From Streptosporangiaceae bacterium (lineage in GTDB: Bacteria; Actinomycetota; Actinomycetes; Streptosporangiales; Streptosporangiaceae), in NCBI GenBank assembly GCA_030038495.1, contig JASHOV010000117.1, forward strand, positions 1 through 58,205: DNA of 58,205 bases, read 5' to 3'. Shown here in pieces: positions 726-27,494 of the stretch (the first letter of the stretch is position 1; each line of letters starts with the position of its first letter). The notes under the pieces were generated by a model. The model ran no database searches. It was not told the DNA's origin and saw nothing but the letters and a program-made list of their open reading frames with translations. The position numbers and the translations under genes are program-made.

Positions 726-737
726 GATGACGAGTAG

Positions 738-11126: not shown

Positions 11127-11127
11127 G

Positions 11128-11805: not shown

Positions 11806-11828
11806 GGGTCGAACCTAGGGGATCAGTT

Positions 11829-11868: not shown

Positions 11869-12097
11869 AAACGCAGGTTGGAGATCGTCCGCCCGGCCAT
11901 CGCCGCGGAGATCGCCGCGCCTGATTCACCACCAAGAAACTTTAAGATTATTGATAAAACGGGGACGGCCGCGGTGCTGGCTGCGGCCTGCCGGACCGCG
12001 GTCAGCAAGATACAAGAACTCTGCTCGGTCGTACATTGCTGCGCGAGGGCGGTGGCTGTGACCATGAGAAAATCGGTCGCCAGCGCGGAGGAGGGAC

Positions 12098-13471
12098 GTG
12101 GACGTCGGCTATCAGCGGCGGGTCGGGGCGACGTTTCGTGAGGTAATTAATGGCCTCAAGCGCAACAGCCTCGCGGCGGCCGCCGATCTCGGTGTCTCCG
12201 TTGAGACCATAGACGATATTATAGCCGGGAAGTGTCGGCTCACCAGTGAGTTGATTGCCCGCGCTGCCGCTATCTGGCCGGTGAATGAGCGCGATTTCTT
12301 TCCCGTGCACGACGATGCTGCCGACGGCGCGATCGTGATGCGTGCCGTGGAGTCCGAGAAGACCAGCAGGACGTTCGCGCGCGGCGGAATCGATTACTAC
12401 GAATACCGTGATACAGCGATGAGTCGGCTCGCGATGTTTCGGCCTGAGTGGATCAAAATGCTGCACTCGGTGCCGGGAACGGACCAGGACGATCCGACGG
12501 TACAGTGGAACAGCGGGCATTTCCTGTATCAATTCACATATTTCATTGGCGCGGTCAATTACTACTACTCGGCGGAAGGCCGGCGTTACTGCGCGGCGAT
12601 GGAAACGGGTGACTCGGTGTCCGGCCTGCCGTACGCGCCGCATAGTTTCGCGTGCCGCGACGGCGCGCCAGGGATGATCCTGGCACTTACCTATGGCGGC
12701 CGTCTGCTTGGCGACGCAGCGCATGAGCTGGGAGCGCTCGGCGAGAGCCTGGCCGAGCGTTATGCCTTCGACGCATCGGGGCCCCATGCGTCGGGTTCTT
12801 TGCTCGGTGTGCAGCTGGATAACACGGGATTTACCCGCGAATGGCTTGCTCGATCCGCCGGGATCCCGCTGGCTCACCTAGAGGACCTCCTGGCCGGGGT
12901 CGCGACAGCTGGATGGGAGGAGCTCGGGACGCTAGCGGAGGCCATGCGGATCAACGTCCGTGACCTGCTCCCCGTGGTGCCCGACACGCACCACGGCGTG
13001 TCGATCCTGCGCCGCCGCGATGTGCCGCGCTGGCCGTATCCCGACGGCGACTCCCCGCACTATGTGATCGGGGCGCTCGCCGGCACGCGCGTCTGCCCCA
13101 GCTCGCGCGGCCTCGAGATCGAGGTACGCGGTACCGACGCTTCCCGCGGAATGCTGCGGACAGGCCTGCATCAGTACTGTTACGTCCTAGGCTCCGAACC
13201 CGTGCGGCTTACCTGGACCTACGACGAGCGGACGTGCTCGCGGGAGCTTGCGCCAGGTGACTCGCTATACCTCAAGCCATTCGTCTCGCACTCTTTCACG
13301 AGTTGCGATCGGCCCGGACGGATCCTCGCACTGCGGATCGGCGGGAAGGTCGCTGGTGACGCCTGGCTGGAAGCCGCCGCGATCGGCGGGTCATCTCTGC
13401 GCCGCCTCACCTACGACACCGCACAGTGGTACGAGGAAGCGGGCACCACCGCGCGGCGGGAGATCCTGTGA
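12098..13471 (+). CDS. 2-hydroxyethylphosphonate dioxygenase-like non-heme Fe(II) oxygenase (HEPD/MPnS family, two HTH-cupin repeats)
   Basis: 457 aa with duplicated HTH+cupin architecture. Putative ligands are H141-x3-Q145...H182. GGAGGAGGG RBS before the GTG. GTGA overlap with pepM. Confidence 0.8.
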   Translation: MDVGYQRRVGATFREVINGLKRNSLAAAADLGVSVETIDDIIAGKCRLTSELIARAAAIWPVNERDFFPVHDDAADGAIVMRAVESEKTSRTFARGGIDYYEYRDTAMSRLAMFRPEWIKMLHSVPGTDQDDPTVQWNSGHFLYQFTYFIGAVNYYYSAEGRRYCAAMETGDSVSGLPYAPHSFACRDGAPGMILALTYGGRLLGDAAHELGALGESLAERYAFDASGPHASGSLLGVQLDNTGFTREWLARSAGIPLAHLEDLLAGVATAGWEELGTLAEAMRINVRDLLPVVPDTHHGVSILRRRDVPRWPYPDGDSPHYVIGALAGTRVCPSSRGLEIEVRGTDASRGMLRTGLHQYCYVLGSEPVRLTWTYDERTCSRELAPGDSLYLKPFVSHSFTSCDRPGRILALRIGGKVAGDAWLEAAAIGGSSLRRLTYDTAQWYEEAGTTARREIL

Positions 13472-14391
13472 CTGCTAGCAAAGGTCGCTACCTGCGCGAG
13501 CGGCTGGCCGGCGGCGACATTGTCCGCGCGGCGGGAGCCCACGACGGGATGAGTGCGCGCCTGGTCGAACGCTGCGGATTCGACGCGGTCTGGGCGTCCG
13601 GGTTCGAGCTCTCCACGAGCTTCGCGGTGCCCGACGCCAGCATCCTCACTATGTCGGAATTCCTGGCCGCGGCACGGACGATGCATGAAGCGGTGTCCAT
13701 TCCCGTGATCGCGGATTGCGACACGGGTTTCGGCGACAGCCTCAATGTCGCGTATATGGCTCGCCGCTACGAGGCAGCGGGGATCGCGGCGGTCTGCATC
13801 GAGGACAAGGTGTTCCCGAAGAGGAACAGCTTCGCCGGAGCCCGGCACGAGCTCGAGCCCGTGGATGTCTTCCAGGAGAAGATAGCCACCGCCAAGGCAA
13901 GCCAGCGAGATGGCAACCTGCTCGTCTTCGCCAGGACCGAGTCCCTGATCGCGGGCCAGGGAGTCGCCGAGGCGCTGCAGCGGGCCGCATCCTATGCAGA
14001 GGCGGGCGCGGACGCGATCTTGGTGCACTCCAGGGCCCGTACTCCCTGCGAGCTGTTCGCCTTCACCGATTCCTGGGACCGGCCCACGCCCGTGGTAGCC
14101 ATCCCGACCAGCTACTACGATGTCACCGCGGAGGAACTGGCCAGCCACGGCGTGCGAGTCGTGATCTACGCTAACCAGGCGATGCGGGCCGGCGTCCGCG
14201 CCATGACCGAGACTCTGCGGGAGATCCGCGAGAGCGGCACCTCGGCCTCGGTGGAGGCACGGATCGCTCCCATGACGGAACTGTTCGCCATCCAGGGACT
14301 GGACCATACTGTCACGGCCCTGCCGGGCACCGGCGCCAACGGCGAGCGCACCTGGCAGCTGGCGGCGGGTCAGGCCGGTAGCCGACCATGA
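13468..14391 (+). CDS. pepM: Phosphoenolpyruvate phosphomutase
   Basis: Isocitrate-lyase/PEP-mutase fold carrying the PepM-diagnostic EDKxxxxxNS motif (CIEDKVFPKRNSF). The GTG at 13468 overlaps the upstream stop. Confidence 0.9.
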   Translation: MTASKGRYLRERLAGGDIVRAAGAHDGMSARLVERCGFDAVWASGFELSTSFAVPDASILTMSEFLAAARTMHEAVSIPVIADCDTGFGDSLNVAYMARRYEAAGIAAVCIEDKVFPKRNSFAGARHELEPVDVFQEKIATAKASQRDGNLLVFARTESLIAGQGVAEALQRAASYAEAGADAILVHSRARTPCELFAFTDSWDRPTPVVAIPTSYYDVTAEELASHGVRVVIYANQAMRAGVRAMTETLREIRESGTSASVEARIAPMTELFAIQGLDHTVTALPGTGANGERTWQLAAGQAGSRP

Positions 14392-15422
14392 CGCGGGATG
14401 TCGTGGTCTACACCGACCCGCCTTGGGCGATAGCCGATGGCGTAGGTCCGCACGCGGCGATGGCGGCCATCGAGCAGTCGTGGCTAGCGGATCTGGCTGA
14501 GCTTCGGTTCGGGCCTTATGCCGACGCGGCCTATCTGGATGGTGCCCCCCTGTACGAGGTGGTTAAGGGCGCCACTGTGCTCGCCCTGTACCGTCGGCGT
14601 GCCACGGCCGAATTGCTAGGCGCGGCGGGAGACGGGCTCCTTGCGGTGGCGAGGGCCGGCGTCGGAACCGACAACCTCAACGTCGGCCTGCTCACCGAGC
14701 GCGGCCTTCTCGCGTTCAACGTGCCCGACTACTGCGTCGACGAGGTGGCGGCTCACACTCTCGCGCTGATCCTGGCGTGGGAACGTGACGTCGTAGGCCA
14801 GCACAACATCCTGGCCGATGGCCGGTTCGATATCTACGCGGGCAGGGTGCCGCGCAGGCTGAGCGAACGCACCGCCGGCATCGTCGGCGTGGGCAGGATC
14901 GGGCGGGCCGTCGCCGCGCGGTTGCGGGTCTTCTACCGGCGGGTGCTGGGCTGCGATCCGTATGTTCACGCCGATCTGATGGCTGGTTACGGCGTGGACT
15001 GCGTAGGCATGGACGAGCTGCTGGCAGGTTCCGATGTTGTCATCCTGCACTGCCCCCTCACCGCGGAGACCGTGGGCCTGATCGGGGAAACGGCGCTTGA
15101 GAAGATGCGCCCGGGCGCATTGCTTGTCAACACGGCCAGGGGCGGCCTGGTGGAGCCGGCTCCGCTGTACCGGGCGCTCACGGAGGGAACGCTGGGGGGA
15201 GCGGCGCTGGACGTCTTCTCGCCAGAGAACCCGCATGCGGATGCGGACTGGGCGAAAGTCGTGCAGTTGCCGCAGGTCGTGGTGTCAAGTCACCGGGCAT
15301 TCCTGTCCGCGGAATCGGAACGCAGTTCGCGGCAGCGGCTGGCCCAGGGCATCGCGCATGTGCTGCGGACCCGGCAGCCCCCTCCGCCTGGCCTGGTCGG
15401 CCTCGTCGCGGCGGGGTCCTGA
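14388..15422 (+). CDS. D-isomer-specific 2-hydroxyacid dehydrogenase (3-phosphoglycerate-dehydrogenase-like; PhpE-like)
   Basis: NAD-binding GIVGVGRIGRAVA, catalytic Arg (NTARGG) and His (SSHRAF). ATGA overlap with pepM. Confidence 0.85.
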   Translation: MTRDVVVYTDPPWAIADGVGPHAAMAAIEQSWLADLAELRFGPYADAAYLDGAPLYEVVKGATVLALYRRRATAELLGAAGDGLLAVARAGVGTDNLNVGLLTERGLLAFNVPDYCVDEVAAHTLALILAWERDVVGQHNILADGRFDIYAGRVPRRLSERTAGIVGVGRIGRAVAARLRVFYRRVLGCDPYVHADLMAGYGVDCVGMDELLAGSDVVILHCPLTAETVGLIGETALEKMRPGALLVNTARGGLVEPAPLYRALTEGTLGGAALDVFSPENPHADADWAKVVQLPQVVVSSHRAFLSAESERSSRQRLAQGIAHVLRTRQPPPPGLVGLVAAGS

Positions 15423-16849
15423 TGTTCCTGAACGGCAGGCTGCAGGGTGAGCCGCGGCTGGAGGTCCGCAGCCCGTGGAACGGTGCGCTGGCCGGCACGG
15501 CAGCGATGGATTCCGCCATCGCCGTCGATCAGGCCGTCCGCGCGGCTGCCGGCTACGACAGGCGGCTGACCGGAGAGCGCCGGTCGGCAATCTTGACCGA
15601 GACCGCGGGCCTGCTCCGATCCCGGCGCGAGGCGCTGGCGTCGCTCATCACGGCCGAGGCTGGGCTTTGCTATCGAGACAGCACCAGGGAGGTGGACCGG
15701 GCATGCGCGAATCTGCGGATAGCGGCGGAGGAAGCACGGCGGATCCACGGCCAGACCATGGAGCTGACGGCCGGAGAAGAGCGCCGAATGGCCCTGACAA
15801 TCCGGGAACCCGTCGGCACGGTCGCGGCGATCACCCCCTTCAACCGGCCCCTAAACCAGGTCGTGGTGAAGGTCGCGCCGGCTATCGCCGCGAACAACGC
15901 CGTGATCGTCAAGCCCTCAGAGAAGGCACCGCTGGCCGCCTTGGAACTGGCTCAGGCACTGGTGGACAGCGGCCTGCCTGCCGAAATGATCGGCGTGGTG
16001 ACGGGTGACCCTGCCGAGGTTGGGACAGCGCTCGTCACCCACGAACTGGTCGACATGGTGACGTTCACCGGCAGCGTCGCAACGGGGGAGCGCATCGCCG
16101 CGGCCGCGGGCATGCGCAAGCTGCTCCTGGAACTGGGCGGTAACGATCCGCTGATCGTCCTCGACGACGCGGACCTCGACCGGGCAGCGGCCATCGCGGT
16201 CGGCGGAGCGTTCGGCAACTCTGGTCAGTCATGCCGCGGGGTCAAGCGCATCCTCGTGACCCCTGGCATCGCCGATCAGTTCGTCGGCCGGCTGCAGGAA
16301 CGCACGCGCACGCTGCGCTTCGGTGACCCCCGCGACCCAGCCACCGACGTGGGGCCGCTGATCACCGAGCAGTACGCGGTGGCGGTGGTCGAGGTGTGCA
16401 GGGCGGCGGTGGCCCAGGGCGCCCGGCTGCTGTGCGGCGGGCACCGTGATGGCGCCGTCGTCGCCCCCACCGTCCTGGACCACGTAGATCCACGGGCCGA
16501 CGTGGTCACCGATGAGACCTTCGGCCCGGTGGCCCCCGTGATCAGAGTCGGTTCAGCCGACGAGGCGATCGAGGTGGCCAACAGCACGAGATACGGGCTG
16601 CAGGCTGGTGTGGTCACGAACAGCTTCGACGCCTTCCTGAGCATTGCCTCCGGTCTGCGAGTGGGCGCGGTGAACCTCATGGATGGCCCCAATTTCGACT
16701 CGCCCTACGTGCCATTCGGCGGGGTGAAGAAGAGTGGGCTCGGCCGTGAAGGAGTCCGGTTCGCCATAGCGGAGATGACGACGTTCAAGACCGTCGTGCT
16801 GCCCTGGCTGCCGCCATGGCCTGGCGGCGGATGTATGCAAGCCGAATGA
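15422..16849 (+). CDS. NAD(P)-dependent aldehyde dehydrogenase (PhpJ-like)
   Basis: ALDH motifs ELGGNDP and the catalytic Cys in GQSCRG. TGATG overlap with the upstream gene. Confidence 0.85.
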   Translation: MFLNGRLQGEPRLEVRSPWNGALAGTAAMDSAIAVDQAVRAAAGYDRRLTGERRSAILTETAGLLRSRREALASLITAEAGLCYRDSTREVDRACANLRIAAEEARRIHGQTMELTAGEERRMALTIREPVGTVAAITPFNRPLNQVVVKVAPAIAANNAVIVKPSEKAPLAALELAQALVDSGLPAEMIGVVTGDPAEVGTALVTHELVDMVTFTGSVATGERIAAAAGMRKLLLELGGNDPLIVLDDADLDRAAAIAVGGAFGNSGQSCRGVKRILVTPGIADQFVGRLQERTRTLRFGDPRDPATDVGPLITEQYAVAVVEVCRAAVAQGARLLCGGHRDGAVVAPTVLDHVDPRADVVTDETFGPVAPVIRVGSADEAIEVANSTRYGLQAGVVTNSFDAFLSIASGLRVGAVNLMDGPNFDSPYVPFGGVKKSGLGREGVRFAIAEMTTFKTVVLPWLPPWPGGGCMQAE

Positions 16850-16908
16850 TGCGGGCTGGCGCATCGTCTGCCAGATCACGGCCCGGTATTGGATCAGGAG
16901 ATGCGAGT

Positions 16909-17976
16909 ATGAGCGCGCTGCGCCGGCGATTGCTGCAGGCCGAGGCAACCTGGTGGATGTCGCGGATTCTGTTGTCCAATCTGTCCATCTGGACGATGCT
17001 GATGGGCTGGGTGGCCGCAGGTCCGCGCCTGGACTCAGCTCATGTGGCCAGGCTGCTCGCGCTGTATGCCGCGTTCGCCCTGGCCGGCGGTGCGCTCTTC
17101 GTAGTCAACGACCTCATGGACGTCGAGGGCGACAAGGTCACCGCTCCGTATTTGCCGTTGCCCTCCGGGCTGCTCAGCCGCAACGAGGCACGGGCGTCCG
17201 TCGCCGTCTACTTCGCGAGCGCGCTGATCTTCCTCTACCTGGCGTGCGCCCGGTTCGGGCTGTTCGTCACCTGCCTGGCGATCATCGTGGTGGCCGCCAT
17301 GGGCTCCATGGGGTACTCCAGATACAAGAAGGAGGGGATTGTCGCCTCAGTCCTCGTGGCCGTGCCGCAGACGATCATTCCCGCCGTCATCGGGTGGCTG
17401 GTGGCGGGAGGCGGATCGGCCTGGCGGCTGGTGGCCGTGCTCAGTTATGCCGTATTCGCCGGCGTCTCGAACAACGTACTCGCCGCTCTCCGCGACGTCG
17501 ATCTCGATGCCAGTGTCGGCAATCGGACGCTGCCGGTTCGGATCGGGGCACCGGCGGCGTTCCGGCTGATCGCGAACCTCGCTTTCGCTGCGCTCGCCGT
17601 GGTCGTCGTGCTCGCGGCCACCATTAACAGCGGAGCCTGGGCCTGGCCGTTCGCTGTGATCGCCGGCGTGGTGCTGTGGCAGGGCTACCGCCTCGCCGCG
17701 GCCAGGTTCGCTCAGCCGCACCGGGGTCGCAGGCAGCGCATGGACGACCTGCGGCTGTTCAAGACGGGGGAGTACGTGCGGCATGCGGCGATGGTAGCGG
17801 TGTTCAACCCGGTGGTTGCGATCGTGGCCTTCGCCTACCTGCTCGGCGGTTTCATGATTGGGTACCGGGTCTACCATCGCCGGCTGACCAGCGGTGCCAT
17901 CCGCGACGCCATGGATCGACTGCCAGCAGCTAGCGGCGCGGGCGTGAACGACCAGTTCTCGGCACCCACAGGGTGA
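16909..17976 (+). CDS. UbiA-family integral-membrane prenyltransferase
   Basis: AGGAG lies 8 nt before the ATG at 16909. ~8-9 TM helices. First Asp-rich motif NDLMDVEGD and second motif RDVDLDASVGNRTLPV, as in DGGGP/chlorophyll/UbiA synthases. Confidence 0.75.
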   Translation: MSALRRRLLQAEATWWMSRILLSNLSIWTMLMGWVAAGPRLDSAHVARLLALYAAFALAGGALFVVNDLMDVEGDKVTAPYLPLPSGLLSRNEARASVAVYFASALIFLYLACARFGLFVTCLAIIVVAAMGSMGYSRYKKEGIVASVLVAVPQTIIPAVIGWLVAGGGSAWRLVAVLSYAVFAGVSNNVLAALRDVDLDASVGNRTLPVRIGAPAAFRLIANLAFAALAVVVVLAATINSGAWAWPFAVIAGVVLWQGYRLAAARFAQPHRGRRQRMDDLRLFKTGEYVRHAAMVAVFNPVVAIVAFAYLLGGFMIGYRVYHRRLTSGAIRDAMDRLPAASGAGVNDQFSAPTG

Positions 17977-18274
17977 GCGCCGGCACGGCTACCCGCGCCC
18001 GTGGCAGGCTGACGATGGCCGGTGAGACTGTATGGACCATAAAGGCAATTCCTGCTTAAATAGAACAGGTGGCGATTTCATACACCACGCCATCGGACGT
18101 GACCCGACCAGCAACTGGCCTTGGTGCGGCTGCCAGCTATGGGTGTACGCCCGCTGAATGGGTGCTTATTGGTATAAATCTCGCTTTTCTTTGGTTTTCG
18201 GCTTATGGCCGTCGCCTCCCCTCGCTTACTGGCACTGGCAGCGGAAAGCCAGCCGGCATGGCACGGGTGGAGAA

Positions 18275-19021
18275 ATGAGCGCGGAGCCGACGGATCATGA
18301 GCCTGTGGCCGTGCCACGGGTGATAGTGGCTGGTCCGCGGTCGAGGTGGCGGTCGGCTGTCATCGCTGCGCTCAGCGCTGATTGCGAGTCCTGGGGAGTA
18401 GGGACCGGAGACGAACTTGTCACGCAGATCGTGGCCCGGGCCGTCGACCTGATTGTGCTGGACGGCAAGCTCCTCATCGGAGACGGCCGCTGGCTGAGTG
18501 CCGTACTGCGTTTGCGCGCGGAAAAGACGCAGGTGTTGTTGCACCTTCGTGACGACCAGGAAACGGATGGTCTACTTCACCTAACCTTCCACGGCGTGTG
18601 CAGCGGAAATGATACGGCCGGGCTGGTGCGCCAGGCGGCGACGCTGCTGGGCCTGGACGGCAGGCTCTCGCCAGGCACGCCAAGCGGCCGGTACGTGTCG
18701 TACGCGCTGAATTTCTTGACTGATCATTACTCAGAACATCTTGATGTCGCTATTGTAGCCACCAGGATGTCCTTGTCTCCCGGCTATCTTGCCCGGATAT
18801 TCCGCAATGAGATGCGTATAGGAATGAGGGAGTTCGTCCTTAGGATGCGCATCGAGGCAGCCAAGCTAATTCTGGCCGAGACCGATGCCACCCTCGGAGC
18901 GGTAGCCCAGCGTTCGGGGTTCTTCGACGCCGCGCATTTCAGTCGAGTATTCCGGCGCTACGAAGGATGTACGCCAGGACAATATCGGAGAACTGCGGTC
19001 ACATATGCCCGGCATCAATAG
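18275..19021 (+). CDS. AraC/XylS-family transcriptional regulator with N-terminal receiver-like (pseudo-receiver) domain
   Basis: C-terminal AraC HTH (LSPGYLARIFRNE...FFDAAHFSRVFRRYEGCTPGQYRR). The N-terminus is CheY-like but lacks the acidic pair. GGTGGAG RBS. GC3 is visibly lower than in the neighbouring genes. Confidence 0.8.
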   Translation: MSAEPTDHEPVAVPRVIVAGPRSRWRSAVIAALSADCESWGVGTGDELVTQIVARAVDLIVLDGKLLIGDGRWLSAVLRLRAEKTQVLLHLRDDQETDGLLHLTFHGVCSGNDTAGLVRQAATLLGLDGRLSPGTPSGRYVSYALNFLTDHYSEHLDVAIVATRMSLSPGYLARIFRNEMRIGMREFVLRMRIEAAKLILAETDATLGAVAQRSGFFDAAHFSRVFRRYEGCTPGQYRRTAVTYARHQ

Positions 19022-19577
19022 CCCAGCGCCCCACACGGATCCCATCGCCGTAGTGCATGGCCGCTTTCAGCCTTTGCACATTGGTCATCTCGAGTATCTG
19101 CTCGCGGGTGCAAGCCGAGCAGCCAGCCTGATCGTAGGGATCACTAATCCCGACCCGTGGCAGACCATCGCGGAACCCACCGACTCTCAGCGAGGTGAAT
19201 CGGAGTCCAACCCGTTCACGTTTTATGAGAGGTTTCTCATGGTGGAGGCGGCGCTGCGCGAACATGGCGTTACAGACTTCCGCATCGTCCCCTTCCCTCA
19301 TGGATTCCCGGAGCGGCTGCACCATTATGTGCCCGCCGACGCGTTGTTCTTGTTCACGATCTACGACGCGTGGGGCGAGGAGAAACTGCGCCGGCTGTCC
19401 GCGCTCGGGTGGCGTACAGAGGTGCTGTGGCGGCGGACAGCGAAGGTCACCTCCGGAACCGAACTGCGCCGCCGGATGCGCGAAGGCGCTGACTGGGAGC
19501 ATCTGGTGCCCGCGGGTACGGCCAGCGTTGTCAGGGAACTGCGGCTTACCGACAGACTGCGGGAAGTCTCACGATGA
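19005..19577 (+). CDS. HxGH-motif nucleotidyltransferase (cytidylyl/adenylyl-transferase superfamily; PhpF-like candidate)
   Basis: GRFQPLHIGH motif near the N-terminus and ~190 aa, like archaeal NMNAT-type enzymes. It overlaps the AraC stop by 17 nt and the next gene by ATGA. Confidence 0.75.
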   Translation: MPGINSPAPHTDPIAVVHGRFQPLHIGHLEYLLAGASRAASLIVGITNPDPWQTIAEPTDSQRGESESNPFTFYERFLMVEAALREHGVTDFRIVPFPHGFPERLHHYVPADALFLFTIYDAWGEEKLRRLSALGWRTEVLWRRTAKVTSGTELRRRMREGADWEHLVPAGTASVVRELRLTDRLREVSR

Positions 19578-20833
19578 CGGGCAAGGTCTATATCGTCGCA
19601 TTGTGCGGGGTGGCTGATGATCCCGCACCCGGCCTCACCCCGCTGGAGCGGGCTGACACCCCGCATCTGGACGCGATGGCCGCAGCCGGGGTTACCGGCC
19701 TGCTCGACGTCGTGGGGAAGGGCATACCTCCGGAATCCGACTCCGGAGCAATGGCACTCCTCGGGTACGACCCGCTGGTGCACTACACGGGACGAGGCCC
19801 GCTTGAGGGCCTGGGAACGGATTTCCTGGATCCGGAAGCTCCCGGCAGCACGGTTGTCTTCCGGCTGAACGTGGCCAGCCATGATGCCGTACGTGACCGG
19901 CTGGACCGGCGGACTGCGCGGGACCTGGACGACAATGAACTGACCGTCCTGCTTGAGGAGGTGCGGGCCGGGGTGAGCCTGGCCGACCATGCGGCGACGT
20001 TTCAGCTCATCGGGTTCGGTCGGCACCGTGGGGTGGTGGCATTTCATAGCCGTACGCGCCCGCTCAGCGGAAACGTCACCAACACCGACCCGCAATATAC
20101 TCGTCAGGGCCCGTTCGGCGTTCCGCGCGACATACCGCTCGCCCGTGCATTTGATTGCAGCCCCCTAGATGATTCACCCGGTGCTGGTAACACGGCCGCG
20201 GTGGTCACCGCCTTCACTGCCCGCAGTGCCGATGTTATGACGCGAAGTGCGGTGAACCGCCGCCGTCGCGCGGACGGCAGGATTCCCGCCAACACGTTCC
20301 TGCTGCGCGATGGCGGCGACCATGTGCCGAGGCTCCGTCCTTTCCATGATCTTTTCGGCCGCAGTCTCGCGATTTTCGGACAGGTACCGGCCGAGCGTGG
20401 TCTCGCCCTCCTGCTGCGCGCCGCATGGCGGGATTGCAAGCGTCCCGCGGACGAACCGGAGCCACGGTATTACCAGCGGCTGGCGGACGAACTTGAGGCC
20501 GCGCCAAGCGATACCGTTTATGTCCACGTCAAAGCGGCCGATGACGCCGCCCACGACGGCGATATGACCGGGAAAGTGGCAGCGATTGAACGGGTAGATA
20601 CGCTGTTCATCCAGCGCCTGAGGGACCGGCTGCGGCCCGGAGACATCTGCGTTCTCACCGGCGACCACGCCACTCCGTGGCGCTCTCGTATTCATTCCGC
20701 CGATCCGGTGCCCGTGGCGGTGACAGGGACCGGACGGCAAGCCGACGCGGTGAGTAGGTTCAGCGAGCGCTCAGCCGTCGACGGCGCACTCGGGCGGATG
20801 CTCGCCTGCGACATGCTTGCCACACTTGAGTGA
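19574..20833 (+). CDS. Cofactor-independent phosphoglycerate mutase-like metalloenzyme (archaeal ApgM type; PhpG-like)
   Basis: The N-terminal block TPHLDAMAAAGVTGLL...PESDSGAMALLGYDPLVHYTGRGPLEGLG matches ApgM-type iPGM. The usual N-terminal DGxxD reads CGVAD here. Confidence 0.8.
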   Translation: MTGKVYIVALCGVADDPAPGLTPLERADTPHLDAMAAAGVTGLLDVVGKGIPPESDSGAMALLGYDPLVHYTGRGPLEGLGTDFLDPEAPGSTVVFRLNVASHDAVRDRLDRRTARDLDDNELTVLLEEVRAGVSLADHAATFQLIGFGRHRGVVAFHSRTRPLSGNVTNTDPQYTRQGPFGVPRDIPLARAFDCSPLDDSPGAGNTAAVVTAFTARSADVMTRSAVNRRRRADGRIPANTFLLRDGGDHVPRLRPFHDLFGRSLAIFGQVPAERGLALLLRAAWRDCKRPADEPEPRYYQRLADELEAAPSDTVYVHVKAADDAAHDGDMTGKVAAIERVDTLFIQRLRDRLRPGDICVLTGDHATPWRSRIHSADPVPVAVTGTGRQADAVSRFSERSAVDGALGRMLACDMLATLE

Positions 20834-21139
20834 AGGCCATGGAAGCGGCGGAAGATCCTGGCGCGGCGGTCGTGAGGAACTCCCGGTGCCACGCGGTCGG
20901 CGCTGCCGCCAGCTGTGGATCGGCCCGGGGTCGGAGCCGATATGTACAAGATCCGGTATTAACCGTGCATGCATTGCAGCCGCGCCGTCGTAGATAATCG
21001 TTGGCACGTGATAACACAACCGGATCTGCGAAAGGTACCGAATACTAGCCCACGGGTCATTGGAGAATATCGAGCCGCCAACGCCCTCAACTCCAAAACT
21101 CCAGTCCCGTCCCTGCTCGAATCAGGAAAGAGATATAAC

Positions 21140-22012
21140 ATGGCCTCCGAGACGGATGTGCGCGGTTACCTCGGCTCGAAGACTCAGGTTCTCATCGACC
21201 GCTACGGCCCCGGGCCGGCGATCCACTACCATTTCGGCCTGTTCGACAGTGAAGCTGGAACCTACGGGTCCTTGGCGGAGATCCGCCGGCGAATCGTTGA
21301 TTCGCAGGAACGAATGCTCGCGTTTGCCGCGGAGGTATGGGATTCCTCGTCGATATTCACCGGGAAACTCCTCGACATCGGGTGCGGGCTCGGTGGCGGA
21401 TCCATCTACTGGGCGCTGCACTACGACGTCGAGGTCACCGCCGTGACGAATGTCGCCGAACACGCGGCCGTCGTCCATGACTTCGCCGACCAAGCCGGTG
21501 TGGGTACTCGCATCCGCCCGATAGTCGCTGACTTCTGCACGTCACAGCTCGATGGACCATTCGAAGCTGCGGTAGCGGTGGAGAGCGCCTCTCAGATGCC
21601 AAAGGACGCGTTCTTCCGAAGTGCGGGACAGGCCCTGCCAGTCGGCGGATACCTGTGTATTGAGGATGGTGTCGACACCACCGCAGCCTGGAAAGAACCT
21701 GCCGGGTCCTCATGGGTGGCTCCCATAGAGAACTACTGGAAGGCAAACCTCAGCACACTGACCGGGTACGTGGAGGCAGCCGAGGCCGCCGGATTCCGGC
21801 TGGATCGCAACGAGGATGTTACCGAGAACATCCTCGAATTCTGGATCCAGAACATGGCCTGGGCCGAAGCCAAACTCGCCCAGCCGGACTTGCCGGCAGA
21901 GGAGCAGCACAAGATGCTCCAGTCCATTCGGTGGCACATGTGGATGTTCCGCGCATACCGCGACCGGGGACTCGAACAACGAGTCGTCAGATTCAAGAAG
22001 GTCCGCAACTGA
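21140..22012 (+). CDS. Class I SAM-dependent methyltransferase
   Basis: The SAM motif LLDIGCGLGGG is preceded by IHYHFGLF. RBS-like AGGAAAG before the ATG at 21140. The upstream in-frame extension to 20969 has non-coding codon usage. Confidence 0.75.
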   Translation: MASETDVRGYLGSKTQVLIDRYGPGPAIHYHFGLFDSEAGTYGSLAEIRRRIVDSQERMLAFAAEVWDSSSIFTGKLLDIGCGLGGGSIYWALHYDVEVTAVTNVAEHAAVVHDFADQAGVGTRIRPIVADFCTSQLDGPFEAAVAVESASQMPKDAFFRSAGQALPVGGYLCIEDGVDTTAAWKEPAGSSWVAPIENYWKANLSTLTGYVEAAEAAGFRLDRNEDVTENILEFWIQNMAWAEAKLAQPDLPAEEQHKMLQSIRWHMWMFRAYRDRGLEQRVVRFKKVRN

Positions 22013-22107
22013 GCAGAGCGAGGCAGATTTTCCAGAATCTCGAATGTGCCTGCTCATACTTGCGAGTCTCGGCGACGGCGGGCGCCCGTAGGGCAGAGAG
22101 GTTGGAG

Positions 22108-22980
22108 ATGATGGCCGACTCGACCATAGGTACGGCGCTCGCGCGTAACACCTTCGAGCGGGAGGCGTTCACCTACTACGACACCAAGCGCAACGATGTT
22201 CTGAACCTGGATCTGGGGGACCTCGACGGCTTCCACCATCACCACTTCGCGGTTGGTGACTTCGACCGCTCCGTTCTCAGCGAGCCGCCCGACCGGCGCG
22301 AGGCGGCCATCGGTGCCGAGATCCACCGCCTGGAGACTGACCAGGTCGACCTCATCCTGCAGACCCTGACGGGAATCAGTCCGAGCAGCCGGCTGCTGGA
22401 CGCCGGTTCCGGACGTGGCGGCACCGCGCTGCTCATCCACCGGACCACCGGGTGCCAGGTCGACGGAGTAAATTTCTCCCCCTACCAGAACGACTTCGCT
22501 CGCCGCGCCGCGCAGCGGCACGGCTACGCCGCGCACATTCAGTTCCACGATCGCAACATGACCGACACTGGCTTCTCGGACGCCTCGTTCGATTACGTGG
22601 TCAGCAACGAGACCACCATGTATGTCGATGTCTTCGAAGCGTTCCGCGAGTTCGCCAGGCTCCTGCGTCCCGGCGGCCGCTATACGCTGCTCACCTGGTG
22701 CCGCAATGACTCGGTCGCACCCGGCCTGACTGAGGCCGACGCGATCAACGCCCACTATTGCTGCCACACCCACCGCCGCAGCACATACCTCAATGCGCTG
22801 CTGGCCGCCAGTCTCATTCCCGACCAGGTCGACAACCTCACGATCCCGGCCATTCCTTATTGGGAGCTGCGCTCGGAGTCCGAGCTCGCCACCGGAATCG
22901 AACAGCTCTACCTGGACGGCTACCGCAGCGATCGCCTCAACTACATCCGCATCACCTCCCGCAAGTCCTCGACTCATTAG
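22108..22980 (+). CDS. Prenyl-diphosphate C-methyltransferase homologue (geranyl diphosphate 2-C-methyltransferase family), copy 1
   Basis: It matches remembered GPPMT blocks throughout: DGFHHHHFAVG, EIHRLETDQ, LLDAGSGRGGT, SNETTMYVDV, GGRY, PYWELRS, TGIEQLY. Confidence 0.85.
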   Translation: MMADSTIGTALARNTFEREAFTYYDTKRNDVLNLDLGDLDGFHHHHFAVGDFDRSVLSEPPDRREAAIGAEIHRLETDQVDLILQTLTGISPSSRLLDAGSGRGGTALLIHRTTGCQVDGVNFSPYQNDFARRAAQRHGYAAHIQFHDRNMTDTGFSDASFDYVVSNETTMYVDVFEAFREFARLLRPGGRYTLLTWCRNDSVAPGLTEADAINAHYCCHTHRRSTYLNALLAASLIPDQVDNLTIPAIPYWELRSESELATGIEQLYLDGYRSDRLNYIRITSRKSSTH

Positions 22981-23066
22981 CGCAGGCCGCCGAACCCCGC
23001 TCAAGAGCATCACCAGGCCGCTAAGAGCGTCGCTTGTCCAGTACCCGCACATCAAGGAGTTCTTTG

Positions 23067-23951
23067 ATGGAATCAGCTGAATCGGCAACGCGAGAAGAAG
23101 TTATCCGCAACGCTCATGACGAAACGCTCGTCAACTACTGGGACAGCAAGAAGGATGACAACATCAACCTTCTTCTCGGCAAGTCCGACGGTATCTATCA
23201 TCATCACTACGGCATCGGGGACTACGACCATTCGATCCTTGATCTCCGTAGCGAGGAGCGGGAGGCGCGCATAGCAGCAGAAATGCATCGCCTGGAAAAC
23301 GCGCAGACCGAGCTGATTCTCGAGGCACTGGGTGAGGTCGCGCCCGACGACCGCGTACTCGACCTGGGATCCGGTCGGGGTGGCACCAGCTTCATGATCC
23401 ATGACAGATTCGGCTGTTTCGTCGACGGCGTCAACATATCCCGATACCAGATCGACTTCTCGCGGCGACTAGCGGAAGAGCGCGGCGTTGCGGAAAAGGT
23501 CAAGTTCCATTACCGGAATATGCTGGCTACTGGCTTCAGCGACCACTCGTTCCAGCGCCTGGTCTCGAATGAGACGACGGCGGATTTGCTGGACCTCTTC
23601 GAGGCGTTCGGTGAGTTCTCGCGCGTGTTGGCACCCGGGGGCCGGTACGTCGTGTTTACCTGGTGCTACAACGACATGACCAATCCGCCTCGTACTGAAA
23701 TCGAAGAGATCGACCGCCACTACCCGGGCAATCACATTCACTCGCGCAGCACCTACTTCAAAGCGCTCGCCGCCAACGGCCTCGTGCCCTGCAAGGTTGC
23801 CGACCTCACCGCCGAGGGAATCCCATACTGGGATTTGCGGTCACGATCCGACCTGCGGACGGGAGTTGAAGAAGCATTCCTGACGGCCTACCGGGAGAAC
23901 AGGCTGAATTTCATGCTGATCGCGGCGGACCGCGCCTGCGGTCACGGTTGA
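23067..23951 (+). CDS. Prenyl-diphosphate C-methyltransferase homologue (GPPMT family), copy 2
   Basis: AAGGAG lies 7 nt before the ATG at 23067. GPPMT-like blocks DGIYHHHYGIG, EMHRLENAQ, VLDLGSGRGGT, GGRY, IHSRSTYF, IPYWDLRS, TGVEEAF and MLIAADRA. Confidence 0.85.
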   Translation: MESAESATREEVIRNAHDETLVNYWDSKKDDNINLLLGKSDGIYHHHYGIGDYDHSILDLRSEEREARIAAEMHRLENAQTELILEALGEVAPDDRVLDLGSGRGGTSFMIHDRFGCFVDGVNISRYQIDFSRRLAEERGVAEKVKFHYRNMLATGFSDHSFQRLVSNETTADLLDLFEAFGEFSRVLAPGGRYVVFTWCYNDMTNPPRTEIEEIDRHYPGNHIHSRSTYFKALAANGLVPCKVADLTAEGIPYWDLRSRSDLRTGVEEAFLTAYRENRLNFMLIAADRACGHG

Positions 23952-23977
23952 TCGCACCTCTGCGGAGGGAGTAACTG

Positions 23978-25072
23978 GTGACCGTCTCACGCACCCATCC
24001 AGACACGTCCCCATTCGACGTCGCTGACGTGCGACACCGCGTGAATATCGCGCTGGAGACCTTTCTCGACAGCCGGGCTGGCCATATTGCCGACGTAGGA
24101 GGTGACGATCTGTCGGCGGTATTGGAAACGATCCGGAAGTTCGTGCTGTCAGGGGGCAAGCGGATCCGGCCAGTGATGTGTTACTGGGGCTGGCGCGGGG
24201 CAGGCGGCCCAGACTGCGAGGAGATCGTCACGGCGGCAGCCTCACTGGAATTGTTCCACGCCTTCGGGTTGATCCACGATGACATCATCGACAGCAGCGA
24301 AGCGCGCCGAGGCCATCCGACAGTGCACCGCACATTCGCCTCAACGCACGCGAAGTCACACTGGCGAGGCGAGGCGGAGGCGTTCGGCACGGCAATCGCG
24401 ATCATCGTCGGCGACCTGTGCTTGTTCTGGTCAAATACCATGTTCCACGCCTGCGGGCTGTCGCCTCAGGTGTTGCTGGCCGGTGATTCAGTGCTGGACG
24501 CCATGCGCGCCGATACGTTTTTCGGCGAGTTCCTGGAGATAATGGACCAGGCTCGGGGCGCCTATTCCGCCGCCAGGGCAGCCACCATCAGTCGTTACAA
24601 GACGGGCAAGTACACGGTGGAGTACCCGCTGAAGCTGGGTGCCGTGCTGGCGGGCGCGGGTGCCGAACTACTGGCGGCTTATTCACAGTTCGGGACCCCG
24701 CTTGGTGAAGCCTTCCAGCTCCGCGATGACGTACTTGGCGTGTTCGGCGACCCGACCGTCACCGGCAAGTCGAATCTCGACGATCTGTATGAAGGTAAGC
24801 CGACCATGCTCATGGCGTTCGCCCTCGAGCGCGCCAATGCTGGGCAGGCGGAGCTTATCAAGACCCTGCATGGCAGCCCGGTCCTGGACGAGCACGGCGC
24901 TGGTGAGCTTCGCCGTGTCATGGTCGAGACAGGCGCCCTCGCCTCCGTTGAGGAGCTGATCAGCAGGCGCACCGAGCAGGCACTGAAAGTACTGGCCGCC
25001 ACGCCCGTCCCGGACCCGACCCGCAGTGTGCTGACCGCCCTGGCCACCGCAGTCACCGACCGCGGAGCCTGA
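23978..25072 (+). CDS. trans-Polyprenyl diphosphate synthase (short/medium chain)
   Basis: FARM LIHDDIID and SARM FQLRDDVLGVFGD. Phe at position -5 relative to FARM suggests a short (C10-C15) product. GGAGGGA RBS before the GTG. Confidence 0.9.
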   Translation: MTVSRTHPDTSPFDVADVRHRVNIALETFLDSRAGHIADVGGDDLSAVLETIRKFVLSGGKRIRPVMCYWGWRGAGGPDCEEIVTAAASLELFHAFGLIHDDIIDSSEARRGHPTVHRTFASTHAKSHWRGEAEAFGTAIAIIVGDLCLFWSNTMFHACGLSPQVLLAGDSVLDAMRADTFFGEFLEIMDQARGAYSAARAATISRYKTGKYTVEYPLKLGAVLAGAGAELLAAYSQFGTPLGEAFQLRDDVLGVFGDPTVTGKSNLDDLYEGKPTMLMAFALERANAGQAELIKTLHGSPVLDEHGAGELRRVMVETGALASVEELISRRTEQALKVLAATPVPDPTRSVLTALATAVTDRGA

Positions 25073-25095
25073 CCAATGGATGGAAATCGATCGCG

Positions 25096-26292
25096 ATGAG
25101 CCGTCATATCACCGCTGCGGAATTCGTTGACGCCCTGCGCGTCCACGGCGTGCAGAACGTCACGGGGGTGCCGTGCGGGCACCTCGCCGGGCCGTGGGCA
25201 CTGTTCGATAGAGCTGGAGAGCTGACCCCGGCCGCCTCGGAGGGCACCGCCCTGGCGATCGCGGCTGGCTGGGAACTGGGGGGCCGGATGTCGGCCGTCC
25301 TCTGCCAGAACTCAGGGCTCGGCAACCTACTCAACCCCCTTGCCTCACTCCTGCTGCCCTACCGAATACCCGTTCTCATCATCATGACGATGCGGGGCTG
25401 GCCTGACCCAGGGGATGACGAGCCACAGCACGCGGCCATGGGCACATCAACCACGGGCATGCTGGAGGCGCTGGACGTGCCATACGCATTCCTGGCGCCG
25501 GAGAAGCTGCAGGAGGCACTTGTCCACGCGGCCGATGCGCGGGCGCAGGGTCGGCCTTTTTTCCTGCTGGTGCCACGGGAGAGCATCGGTAAGGCGGCAG
25601 AGGCACCCTCGGCCGGGGTGCCTCCCGTCGGGGAGCGGCTCACACGCGCACGGGTTGTGTCCGCCCTCATGACGCAGTTGACCGACGAACTGCTGGTCAC
25701 CACCACCGGCTCTTTGTCCCGGCAGGCCCATCACGAGCGGGACCGCCCGGGCACGTTCTATATGCAGGGCTCGATGGGGCATGCCTCGGCCATCGGGACC
25801 GGCCTGGCGATGGCTCATCCGGATCGCGGCACGGTCATTCTCGACGGCGACGGTGCCTTTCTCATGCACCTGGGCACCGGTTCCACCATAGGCGCGTCCG
25901 GTGCGCGGAACCTTGTGCACATCATCGTCGACAATGGCTGCTATGAGTCCACTGGCTGCCAGGCGTCGACCTCGCGCTGCCTGGATTGGCCGAGTCTTGG
26001 TCACGGGCTGGGCTACAGATCAGTGGTCACCTGTGACTCGGAGCCGGGGCTGGCGGGAAATCTGCGAACCGCGCTGACCGCCGAGGGGCCGGTACTCCTT
26101 GTGCTCACGGTCGTGCCCACTCCGGACGAGGTCCACCCGAGAGCATCGGCGTCGCGCAGCCTGTCCGATATCGCGGAACGATTCCGGGCGGTCGCCACCC
26201 AGACGACGACCTCCGCGGGAACGGACCCGACGGCGGCCATGGAAACGCGCGCGAGGCCGGCGCTCAGGGGCGGCGGCAGGAGCTCACCATGA
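25096..26292 (+). CDS. ppd: Phosphonopyruvate decarboxylase (ThDP-dependent)
   Basis: Sulfopyruvate/phosphonopyruvate decarboxylase-like N-terminus (FVDALRVHGVQNVTGVPCG) and ThDP motif GDGAFLMH...IIVDNG. It sits in the cluster with pepM. Confidence 0.85.
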   Translation: MSRHITAAEFVDALRVHGVQNVTGVPCGHLAGPWALFDRAGELTPAASEGTALAIAAGWELGGRMSAVLCQNSGLGNLLNPLASLLLPYRIPVLIIMTMRGWPDPGDDEPQHAAMGTSTTGMLEALDVPYAFLAPEKLQEALVHAADARAQGRPFFLLVPRESIGKAAEAPSAGVPPVGERLTRARVVSALMTQLTDELLVTTTGSLSRQAHHERDRPGTFYMQGSMGHASAIGTGLAMAHPDRGTVILDGDGAFLMHLGTGSTIGASGARNLVHIIVDNGCYESTGCQASTSRCLDWPSLGHGLGYRSVVTCDSEPGLAGNLRTALTAEGPVLLVLTVVPTPDEVHPRASASRSLSDIAERFRAVATQTTTSAGTDPTAAMETRARPALRGGGRSSP

Positions 26293-27494
26293 GCAGCTCG
26301 GCACGGGACGGAGGTGGCATTGCCCTTCTGGCCGGCCGGGGGAGCTTCGAGAAGGTGCCCAGCCTGTGCGCGGGCCGCCGTGTGCTGGTCATCGCGAGTG
26401 CCGGGGCGCTGCAGCGGAGCCGGGCCATCACGTGGCTGCCGACGGACGCCAGGACGTTCACGGCGTTCCGCCCCAACCCCACAGTTGCGCAGGCGCTGGC
26501 GGCGGCGCAGTTCTGCCGCTCCTCGGGCGTTGATCTGGTCGTAGGTCTCGGCGGTGGCTCCGCGCTTGACGTCGCCAAGGCCGGGCGCGTTCTCCCCGCC
26601 GACGCTCACGATGCCGACGAGGTCATCGCCGGCCGTCGCCCGGCGCCGGCAGACAGACCGGAGTTGCTGCTCGTACCTACGACGGCGGGAACGGGCAGCG
26701 AGGTGACAAGTTTCGCGACCCTCTACCAGGGTTACAGGAAGGTCTCTCTCGACACCCCGGCAGCGCGTGCCGATATCGCCGTCGTGGACCCTGCCTTGAC
26801 CGAAACCTGCCCGCCTCGCCTGACGTGGACGTGTGCCTTCGACTGCCTGGCGCACGCTATGGAGTCGCTGTGGTCCGTCCGTTCCAGCGCCCGCTCCCGT
26901 GAATGGGCAGTGGCAGCCCTGCGCATGCTGATACCTGTACTGACGGACGCGGATGATCTGCCCGATACGGCCGAACGCGATACCCTTAGCCGGGCCGCGA
27001 CCCTGGCCGGGCGGGCCATCGGCATCACCCGCACCACAGCAGCCCATGCGATGTCCTATCCCCTGACCGCGCACCTGGGCGTCCCGCATGGCCTTGCCTG
27101 CGCGCTCAACCTGACCTGGCTGGTTCCCCTGGTGGAGACGGCGCAGCCGGAGCAGGTAACCGACGAACGCGGCCCGGCTGTGGTACGTGAAGCGGTCGAT
27201 ACCCTGCGGATTGCGTTCAACGCTCAGGGCATGGACCTGGCCAGTGTGCTGCGGGCAATGATCGGCCGCCGGGTAGAGCCGCCGTACGGCGACGCCCGGT
27301 GCCCGCGGCGGCCGGGCGCCCGCACGGACGATGCCTGGATCGATCTGCTCGTGGCGGAGGGAATGTCCTCGAATCGGATGACAGGGACGCCTGTGCGGCT
27401 GGAACGATGGCAGGTGCGGGCTGGGCTGGAAACGATCCTCCCGGTCATGCGATCAGCAGGCGGGCACCAAGCTCGGCTTCGTCAAGCCCGGTGA
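26289..27494 (+). CDS. Iron-containing (group III) alcohol dehydrogenase, candidate phosphonoacetaldehyde reductase
   Basis: The GLGGGSALDVAKA motif and metal-binding His residues (HAMES, HAMSY) are present. ATGA overlap with ppd. Confidence 0.85.
   Translation: MSSSARDGGGIALLAGRGSFEKVPSLCAGRRVLVIASAGALQRSRAITWLPTDARTFTAFRPNPTVAQALAAAQFCRSSGVDLVVGLGGGSALDVAKAGRVLPADAHDADEVIAGRRPAPADRPELLLVPTTAGTGSEVTSFATLYQGYRKVSLDTPAARADIAVVDPALTETCPPRLTWTCAFDCLAHAMESLWSVRSSARSREWAVAALRMLIPVLTDADDLPDTAERDTLSRAATLAGRAIGITRTTAAHAMSYPLTAHLGVPHGLACALNLTWLVPLVETAQPEQVTDERGPAVVREAVDTLRIAFNAQGMDLASVLRAMIGRRVEPPYGDARCPRRPGARTDDAWIDLLVAEGMSSNRMTGTPVRLERWQVRAGLETILPVMRSAGGHQARLRQAR

Follow-up and report, generated by a model that had tools for sequence, protein, structure and literature searches.

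A candidate gene cluster for a lipidated phosphonoformyl-glycerate in a Streptosporangiaceae bacterium

The contig JASHOV010000117.1 of a Streptosporangiaceae bacterium (GenBank assembly GCA_030038495.1) was analysed over positions 1 to 58,205; this 58 kb stretch is called the window below. Between positions 12098 and 27494 it carries 14 co-directional open reading frames (ORFs), on the + strand only, in which genes of phosphonate biosynthesis are interleaved with genes for a UbiA-superfamily membrane transferase, a prenyl diphosphate synthase and three methyltransferases (MT1, MT2 and MT3). The gene map was established by comparison with Pfam, NCBIfam and PDB, and is reported in table 1. We propose, with moderate confidence, that this locus is a cluster for a lipidated phosphonoformyl-glycerate with an exchangeable lipid donor module. 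That it is a phosphonate cluster places it in a known class; the predicted type of product is new.

Table 1. Genes of the cluster and a conserved intergenic element. Related loci are designated by L numbers; identities to php proteins refer to L023, used as the reference phosphinothricin cluster.
12098-13471, +, class-II 2-hydroxyethylphosphonate dioxygenase (HEPD); methylphosphonate synthase (MPnS) 6b9s 1e-110, S. albus HEPD 6b9r 1e-104, PhpD only 3e-9
13468-14391, +, PepM (phosphoenolpyruvate (PEP) mutase); PF13714 3e-56, motif EDKVFPKRNS
14388-15422, +, PhpE-type D-2-hydroxyacid dehydrogenase; 2-Hacid_dh Pfam domains, 52% identical to L023 PhpE
15422-16849, +, PhpJ-type aldehyde dehydrogenase; Aldedh 1.8e-144, 54% identical to L023 PhpJ
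16909-17976, +, UbiA-superfamily membrane transferase of a small distinct subfamily; PF01040 7e-25, the longest ORF starts at 16816 and the called gene at 16909
18158-19021, +, AraC-family regulator; HTH_18 and HTH_AraC, upstream of PhpF-PhpG in L008 too
19005-19577, +, PhpF-type CTP:phosphonoformate cytidylyltransferase; CTP_transf_like, NMN-adenylyltransferase-like, 63% identical to L023 PhpF
19574-20833, +, PhpG (CMP-5'-phosphonoformate--3-phosphoglycerate phosphonoformyl transferase); iPGM-like, NF038358, 51% identical to L023 PhpG
20917-21006, +, intergenic element with TAGATAAT box, about 85 nucleotides (nt); also at L004 2683-2755, L008 7900-7983 and L010 1490-1556
21140-22012, +, MT1, prenyl-diphosphate C-methyltransferase of BezA / farnesyl diphosphate (FPP)-C6 type; PDB 9tb4 3.5e-56, 7fbh 7.7e-53, 290 aa call
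22108-22980, +, MT2, geranyl diphosphate (GPP)-2-C-methyltransferase-like; NF041943 297.9 bits, PDB 4f84 8.6e-62
23067-23951, +, MT3, GPP-2-C-methyltransferase-like; NF041943 362.2 bits, PDB 4f84 1e-72
23978-25072, +, short-chain (about C10-C20) trans-prenyl diphosphate synthase; polyprenyl_synt 1.7e-49, 3lk5 1e-70, 8f8f 8.5e-67
25096-26292, +, Ppd (phosphonopyruvate decarboxylase); TIGR03297 297.5 bits, TPP domains
26289-27494, +, PhpC-type Fe-alcohol dehydrogenase (Fe-ADH); Fe-ADH Pfam domains, TIGR03405 (Phn_Fe-ADH) 185 bits as top NCBIfam match

The predicted route to phosphonoformyl-glycerate

As shown by homology, the cluster would encode a route from PEP through phosphonopyruvate, phosphonoacetaldehyde, 2-hydroxyethylphosphonate, hydroxymethylphosphonate, phosphonoformaldehyde, phosphonoformate and CMP-5'-phosphonoformate to phosphonoformyl-(phospho)glycerate. 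PepM, Ppd and the PhpC-type dehydrogenase would supply the 2-hydroxyethylphosphonate. The four core enzymes named in the initial annotation of this DNA (PepM, Ppd, an Fe-alcohol dehydrogenase and an HEPD-like dioxygenase) all keep their identities. PepM carries CIEDKVFPKRNS, in agreement with the EDKX5NS motif, and its top NCBIfam match is TIGR02320 (292.7 bits, under the cut-off of 319.55). The score of Ppd against TIGR03297 lies slightly under the cut-off of 312.5, with both TPP domains present and no rival family near; the protein is 76% identical to its orthologue in L010. Ppd would drain the product of the thermodynamically unfavourable mutase reaction, and a coupled enzyme of this kind is expected in a PepM-dependent phosphonate cluster.

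The dioxygenase retains the His/Gln/His iron ligands (a 2-His-1-Gln site). It is only 27% identical to PhpD and sits in the clade of MPnS and class-II HEPD. Two second-shell residues, which reportedly decide between the HEPD and the MPnS product (Tyr/Gly versus Phe/Ile, in work by Born et al. from 2017), are Tyr and Gly, as in the solved HEPD (6b9r), where the solved MPnS (6b9s) has Phe/Ile. The Tyr/Gly pair is likewise found in the dioxygenase orthologues from four related loci. The enzyme is predicted to cut 2-hydroxyethylphosphonate to hydroxymethylphosphonate and formate. A methylphosphonate synthase was considered and rejected: the residues are of the HEPD type, and PhpE and PhpJ are present downstream.

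The early pathway had been described as complete up to a C1 phosphonate. The core of that description stands, and its endpoint does not: orthologues of PhpE, PhpJ, PhpF and PhpG, overlooked earlier, extend the pathway to CMP-5'-phosphonoformate and phosphonoformyl-glycerate, and the predicted product therefore changes. The PhpE-type enzyme would oxidize hydroxymethylphosphonate to phosphonoformaldehyde and the PhpJ-type enzyme would take this to phosphonoformate (the top NCBIfam match of the latter is phosphonoacetaldehyde dehydrogenase, 527 bits). The PhpF-type protein would activate phosphonoformate as CMP-5'-phosphonoformate. PhpG, which scores 544.1 bits against the equivalog NF038358, within 1 bit of the cut-off of 545, would move the phosphonoformyl group onto phosphoglycerate, a chemistry that we take to be correct partly from the NCBIfam names.

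The order of reactions is that of phosphinothricin biosynthesis in S. viridochromogenes and S. hygroscopicus (ppm, ppd, phpC, D, E, J, F, G) over the first eight reactions, from PEP to phosphonoformyl transfer. All php functions up to that transfer (C, D, E, J, F and G) are represented in the window, the HEPD step by a class-II enzyme in place of PhpD. In the reference cluster L023, identified by a PhpD with 899 bits against the solved S. viridochromogenes protein, the order is phpC-D-E-ppm-ppd-phpF-G, followed by genes for an enolase (H), a carboxyphosphonoenolpyruvate (CPEP) mutase (I), an aldehyde dehydrogenase (J), a radical S-adenosylmethionine (SAM) protein (K), an HMGL-like protein, a non-ribosomal peptide synthetase (NRPS) and an acetyltransferase. 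The 58 kb window, in contrast, has no gene of the enolase type (PhpH), no second member of the PEP-mutase family (PhpI, the CPEP mutase), no radical-SAM gene (PhpK, the P-methylase), no Pms and no NRPS, and UbiA with the isoprenoid genes replaces the phosphinate branch. The features that define the phosphinate branch were looked for and are lacking, so this is no phosphinothricin cluster.

A phosphinate might nevertheless be made with the help of unlinked PhpH/PhpI-type enzymes, the isoprenoid genes then being irrelevant. The six php-type genes of the window (C, D-like, E, F, G, J) would agree with this, but enolase-, CPEP-mutase- and P-methylase-type genes are missing both from the window and from the relatives with a UbiA of the same type that were examined (gene tables of L002, L006/L007, L021 and L022; tblastn of L017), and in the genuine cluster L023 such genes stand directly after phpG. 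We regard this explanation as very improbable. Since PhpH, PhpI and PhpK are absent from the window, a phosphinate is not expected and was rejected as the product; the pathway would end before phosphinate chemistry.

The number, strand and coordinates of the 14 genes are as first annotated. So are the start/stop overlaps (GTGA at 13468, ATGA at 14388, TGATG at 15420-15424, ATGA at 19574 and ATGA at 26289) and the short gaps of 95 nt (22012/22108), 86 nt (22980/23067) and 23 nt (25072/25096), to which a gap of 26 nt between MT3 and the prenyl synthase (23951/23978) can be added. The order pepM then dioxygenase had to be reversed: the dioxygenase is gene 1 (12098-13471) and PepM gene 2 (13468-14391). 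The locus probably consists of three transcription units, the breaks being a 181-nt gap at 17976/18158 and a 306-nt gap at 20833/21140. Phosphonate and isoprenoid genes remain interleaved inside these units, with PhpJ and UbiA about 59 nt apart in unit 1 and the prenyl synthase 23 nt from Ppd in unit 3. A scan of promoter and terminator consensus sequences gave a result no better than for shuffled sequence.

The UbiA transferase and its relatives

The UbiA protein belongs to a small subfamily. A word-indexed search returned 31 matches. A full HMM scan of 1.84 billion proteins gave 57 representatives at E<=1e-30, beyond which similarity falls off steeply to generic UbiA proteins; a profile scan of genomes found relatives in only 9 of 185,579 species genomes, none above 50% identity. 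The Asp-rich motifs (NDxxDxxxD and DxxxD) are conserved, with N67, D68, D71, D75, D196 and D200 invariant in an alignment of 23 subfamily sequences. All NCBIfam matches are far under their cut-offs. The nearest solved structures, chlorophyll synthase and digeranylgeranylglyceryl phosphate (DGGGP) synthase, are remote (about 2e-8); both enzymes are O-prenylating.

The block PhpF-PhpG-HEPD-PhpE-PhpJ-UbiA recurs in five other loci, with proteins 45-68% identical to those of the window. These loci come from Micromonospora sp. ATCC 39149 (L002/L019), a Pseudonocardiaceae metagenome-assembled genome (MAG; L006/L007/L012), a Micromonosporaceae MAG (L017), a JGI metagenome contig (L021) and an ENA metagenome contig (L022). 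Their gene order, permuted with respect to the window, is MFS-PhpF-PhpG-(Ppd)-HEPD-(PepM-FeADH)-PhpE-PhpJ-UbiA, where MFS stands for a major facilitator superfamily exporter, and UbiA lies immediately 3' of the PhpJ-type gene. The phosphonate set and the UbiA subfamily are the same as in the window. In the window's cluster the exporter is lacking, whereas none of the five loci has the methyltransferase or prenyl synthase genes. An exo/endo-phosphatase-family gene is present in L002/L019, L006/L012, L017 and L021; none was seen in L022, a locus that ends 5 kb past UbiA.

Beyond three metagenomic near-relatives, the nearest relatives of the window's PhpG all come from UbiA-type loci, with identities of 55-62% compared with 51% to the phosphinothricin PhpG. 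A neighbour-joining tree places the phosphonate-associated UbiAs in one clade, with the window's small clade as its sister. The independent and repeated placement of UbiA directly after a PhpJ-type gene supports the view that UbiA belongs to the phosphonate pathway and would not be a chance neighbour. The claim of the initial annotation that the isoprenoid genes are part of the phosphonate pathway is thus borne out by the five loci for UbiA, and finds no backing there for the methyltransferase and synthase block.

Two of the five loci, L017 and L021, are minimal, with phosphonoformate genes, PhpF and PhpG, UbiA, an exo/endo-phosphatase-family protein and the MFS gene, and no other lipid-related gene. 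UbiA can therefore use a donor from primary metabolism. The remaining phosphonate loci (L002, L006/L012 and L022) carry a fatty-acid-type module, found in most genomes around UbiA: it comprises an acyl-AMP ligase, an acyl-CoA-dehydrogenase-type enzyme, two NAD_binding_4 reductases, two PEP-utilising-type proteins (one PPDK_N/PEP-utilising) and a carrier protein, frequently accompanied by aconitase-like subunits, a TENA/haem-oxygenase-like protein and P450s. The same module occurs without phosphonate genes in L001, L003, L005, L013-L016 and L018. Its genes are absent from the window. Each of them could have a part in converting a fatty acid to a 2-alkenyl (allylic) diphosphate; nothing relevant was found in the literature on a module of this kind accompanying UbiA. 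We infer that either the module or the methyl-isoprenoid genes of the window can serve as the source of an allylic lipid diphosphate, with a phosphoglycerate-like acceptor coming from the PhpF/PhpG branch.

The methyl-isoprenoid cassette and its slot

The UbiA transferase, the polyprenyl synthase, the two GPP-C-methyltransferase homologues and the further methyltransferase of the initial annotation are all confirmed in their identities, the last being BezA / FPP-C6-like. Of the solved relatives of MT1, 9tb4 is a C6-FPP methyltransferase and 7fbh is BezA, and relatives of MT1 use GPP or FPP; beyond the lineage, the nearest one (47%) belongs to a cluster (L027) that also encodes a terpene synthase, a P450 and a cis-prenyltransferase. 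MT2 and MT3 miss the cut-off of 400 of the GPP-methyltransferase equivalog NF041943. The prenyl synthase has the motifs DDIID and DDVLG and resembles actinobacterial FPP and geranylgeranyl diphosphate (GGPP) synthases (3lk5 is a GGPP synthase and 8f8f an FPP synthase).

Relatives of the MT2/MT3 family methylate isopentenyl diphosphate (IPP), dimethylallyl diphosphate (DMAPP), GPP or FPP (PMC10881772, PMC9401056), and operons are known that combine such methyltransferases with prenyltransferases but contain no terpene synthase (PMC9401056). A homologue of MT3 in L025 (986-3047), 52% identical, is encoded immediately upstream of an IspH/LytB gene, a pairing which hints that some members of the MT3 clade act on C5 units. 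In Actinomadura madurae ATCC 19425 (L020, 6809-13919), an outgroup UbiA (36% identical) is directly followed by a prenyl synthase (43% identical to that of the window), and genes for a radical-SAM protein, an ABC transporter and a SARP-type regulator are close by; here, too, a cluster pairs UbiA with a synthase of its own.

There is no Pfam match to a terpene synthase in the window, and no pair of DDxxD and NSE motifs in its unannotated ORFs, so that UbiA is the sole evident consumer of prenyl diphosphates there. Two familiar assignments were rejected on these grounds: a terpene cluster, the window having no terpene synthase, and a 2-methylisoborneol system, MT2 and MT3 lying under the equivalog cut-off as well. 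MT1-3 are homologous to enzymes of known methylated-isoprenoid pathways (the GPP 2-C-methyltransferase of 2-methylisoborneol, BezA of benzastatin, the FPP C6-methyltransferases of C16 terpenes, and the IPP methyltransferases Lon23 and that of S. monomycini). Unlike these pathways, the window has three methyltransferases together, no terpene synthase, and a phosphonate operon around them. A metagenome scan with MT3 gave three distant matches, located on short contigs, and did not reveal another intact cluster.

Three close relatives of the cluster, all metagenomic, illustrate how its parts are exchanged. In L010 (about 80% identical), PhpG is followed by a 4-hydroxyphenylpyruvate dioxygenase (4-HPPD; NCBIfam equivalog 332 bits, cut-off 277) and an aminotransferase (L010 1659-4201), then by Ppd and the Fe-alcohol dehydrogenase, with breakpoints at window positions 20845 and 25071. 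L008 (about 87% identical) has MFS-AraC-PhpF-PhpG, then a truncated Ppd and an unrelated prenyl-synthase-like gene. L004 (about 90% identical; 1-7890 of a forest-soil metagenome scaffold) has UbiA, MT1, MT2, MT3 and the synthase intact; HEPD, PepM, PhpE and PhpJ persist only as remnants of 29-47 residues, and AraC-PhpF-PhpG is deleted. The check proposed in the initial annotation, namely whether orthologous loci keep the phosphonate and isoprenoid genes together, thus gives a split answer: UbiA is kept in the five distant loci, the cassette is replaced in L010, and L004 keeps UbiA and the cassette alongside phosphonate remnants. Once reverse-complemented, the first 79 nt of L008 are identical to the first 79 nt of L004, a match that points to a common repeat or an assembly-graph branch.

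The intergenic element with the TAGATAAT box lies 3' of PhpG in L008 and L010, 5' of MT1 in L004, and between both genes in the window. This sharing indicates that the order PhpG-element-MT1 is authentic and that L004 descends from a window-like order. The element may serve as a promoter, or as an operator for the AraC protein, whose gene lies two genes upstream, and the cassette slot sits behind this conserved promoter-like sequence. The start of MT1 is most likely the ATG at 21140, with a AGGAAAGAG ribosome-binding site; a start at 20969 is unlikely because that position falls in the element conserved in relatives without MT1. Homogentisate is a classic acceptor of UbiA-family enzymes, and both filled states of the slot could be related to prenylation, through donor supply in the window and through a tyrosine-to-homogentisate route in L010; for L010 this is no more than a lead, as its contig begins at phpG and does not reach the upstream stretch where a UbiA gene could lie.

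The contig might also be an assembly chimera of L004-type and L008/L010-type loci from related strains. The junctions UbiA/AraC (17980-18216) and synthase/Ppd (25072-25096) are seen only in this contig, and the close relatives are, as noted, all metagenomic. A chimera would, however, require three joins in the same orientation, each at an intergenic boundary; the PhpG-element junction is found in L008 and L010 and the element-MT1 junction in L004, and a repeat search detected no long repeats at the cassette junctions. We consider a chimera highly improbable.

Base composition differs along the cluster. GC3 is reduced at 18158-25072 (0.66-0.77, with MT2 as an exception at 0.84), compared with 0.76-0.85 in the flanking cluster genes and 0.80-0.90 in most of the window, which fits a later arrival of AraC-PhpF-PhpG and the cassette genes. 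Similarity to the close relatives ends near 12010 on the left and near 27441 on the right. The flanks carry a two-component system upstream and a solute-binding protein downstream. Two ORFs at the borders, and a second gene set further away, were assessed as follows.
27445-28182, -, convergent class-I methyltransferase (Methyltransf_11; PDB 3ege, 6e-28), overlapping the 3' end of the Fe-alcohol dehydrogenase gene by 50 nt; the top solved relative 3ege is described as an 'antibiotic pathway' methyltransferase and is uncharacterised. The ORF is missing after the Fe-alcohol dehydrogenase gene in L010, so that its membership is doubtful and it probably falls outside the cluster
11008-12141, +, ORF of 377 aa, rejected as a gene: it has no Pfam match, overlaps an opposite-strand response-regulator gene and runs into the HEPD start, and is probably a high-GC artefact
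38909-48285, second co-directional set: an AMP-binding enzyme, an MFS transporter, a DegT-type aminotransferase, a sulfotransferase, a short-chain dehydrogenase/reductase (SDR), a methyltransferase, a 291-aa protein without Pfam match and a DAO-type FAD oxidase; this may be a separate small biosynthetic cluster

The predicted product and its meaning

In the pathway that we propose, UbiA would use an allylic lipid diphosphate to lipidate the glycerate-phosphonoformate head group, or would prenylate phosphoglycerate ahead of PhpG. The prenyl synthase would build the chain, and MT1-3 would methylate it or its C5 units, giving a methyl-branched C15-C20 donor; the product would be a methyl-branched prenyl ether or ester of phosphonoformyl-glycerate. 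Across the relatives, the lipid donor module would be lacking, fatty-acid-derived, or the methyl-isoprenoid cassette. A broader proposal, which we put forward only tentatively, is that of a so far unrecognised family of lipid-anchored phosphonoformate (pyrophosphate-mimic) products in which UbiA would join a head group made by PhpF/PhpG to one of several donors. The minimal clusters would use ordinary prenyl diphosphates, the window non-canonical ones that are triply methylated, and most relatives non-isoprenoid 2-alkenyl diphosphates built from fatty acids. In the last case the acyl-AMP ligase and the carrier protein would work with the acyl-CoA-dehydrogenase-type enzyme as a desaturase, the two reductases as thioester/aldehyde reductases and the two PEP-utilising-type proteins as phosphotransferases.

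The O-prenylation of phosphoglycerate or glycerol-phosphate head groups is known from the lipid-phosphoglycerate unit of moenomycin (MoeO5) and from the archaeal geranylgeranylglyceryl phosphate (GGGP) and DGGGP synthases. The logic proposed here would be alike, DGGGP synthase being one of the two nearest, although remote (2e-8), solved relatives of UbiA. Compared with moenomycin, the head group would bear a C-P carboxyphosphonate, a mimic of pyrophosphate, in place of phosphate. No gene of the MoeO5 or PcrB type turned up in the Pfam scans of the window.

Several observations weigh against a lipidated phosphonoformyl-glycerate. The main counter-evidence comes from L004, from L005 and from the restriction of the cassette (MT1-3 and the synthase) to one lineage. 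The distant UbiA-type phosphonate loci all lack this block, it occurs inside a phosphonate cluster in one intact locus only, and in L010 its slot is taken by 4-HPPD and the aminotransferase. The pattern of decay in L004 means that UbiA and the cassette may work without the phosphonate. Outside the lineage, the closest UbiA relatives are those of L005 and P0004 (76-77% identical), and L005 is a 14 kb contig without phosphonate genes. The similarity of UbiA to O-prenylating enzymes, on which the proposed coupling would lean, is weak (E ~1e-8). The cluster has neither the exporter nor the exo/endo-phosphatase-family gene of its distant relatives, and the two junctions peculiar to this contig count on the same side. 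All chemistry placed after PhpG is deduced, and no member of the family has a known product.

Some of these points could be accommodated by two separate pathways at one locus, in which UbiA and the cassette would make a phosphonate-free methylated prenyl lipid or metabolite and the phosphonate genes a small soluble derivative of phosphonoformate or hydroxymethylphosphonate. This would agree with the intact UbiA, MT1-3 and synthase of L004 beside its decayed phosphonate genes, with the many phosphonate-free clusters holding the UbiA subfamily (L001, L003, L005, L013-L016 and L018), and with a lineage-specific cassette over which GC3 falls (18158-25072). It is at odds with the position of UbiA 3' of a PhpJ-type gene in five divergent loci, of which the minimal L017 and L021 offer UbiA no other substrate, and with the single clade of phosphonate-associated UbiAs to which the window's clade is sister. 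Moreover, Ppd and PhpC, needed for the phosphonate, follow 23 nt behind the synthase, probably on the same transcript as the cassette. On balance we consider two pathways unlikely.

A third possibility is a component of the cell envelope. UbiA would then make or use a polyprenyl-phosphate-linked carrier (compare decaprenyl-phosphate phosphoribosyltransferase), and phosphonoformyl-glycerate would pass to a wall polymer or a membrane phosphonolipid. The UbiA superfamily includes lipid-carrier enzymes, and the lack of an exporter gene in the cluster would suit such a role. According to PMC6697681, most bacterial phosphonate capacity serves to decorate cell surfaces, and nucleotidyl activation is typical there. 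Against an envelope component, no glycosyltransferase, flippase or polymer-synthesis genes were found in or beside the cluster, the distant relatives open with an MFS exporter gene, and the patchy distribution, the variable cassettes and the AraC regulator within the cluster resemble specialized metabolism. We judge this possibility quite unlikely, and retain the lipidated phosphonoformyl-glycerate as the favoured product.

In open-access full text we found no paper that ties phosphonate biosynthesis to UbiA, or that describes PhpF/PhpG outside phosphinothricin; the nearest remark is one sentence in PMC8942020. This agrees with the initial annotation, to which neither a characterized phosphonate bearing a prenyl group nor a phosphonate cluster with this gene mix was known. 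The characterized phosphonate natural products in the searched literature are all small and polar, and a lipidated phosphonoformate would, if true, be new. Enzymes acting on prenyl diphosphates or on lipid-linked precursors of the cell wall would be its plausible targets. Until now PhpF and PhpG have been known only on the way to phosphinothricin; here they occur in another conserved setting, one that lacks PhpH and PhpI, and prenyl-diphosphate methyltransferases could feed a transferase and not a terpene synthase. The cultured Micromonospora sp. ATCC 39149 and the minimal 11-gene versions among the relatives give experimental access to this family.

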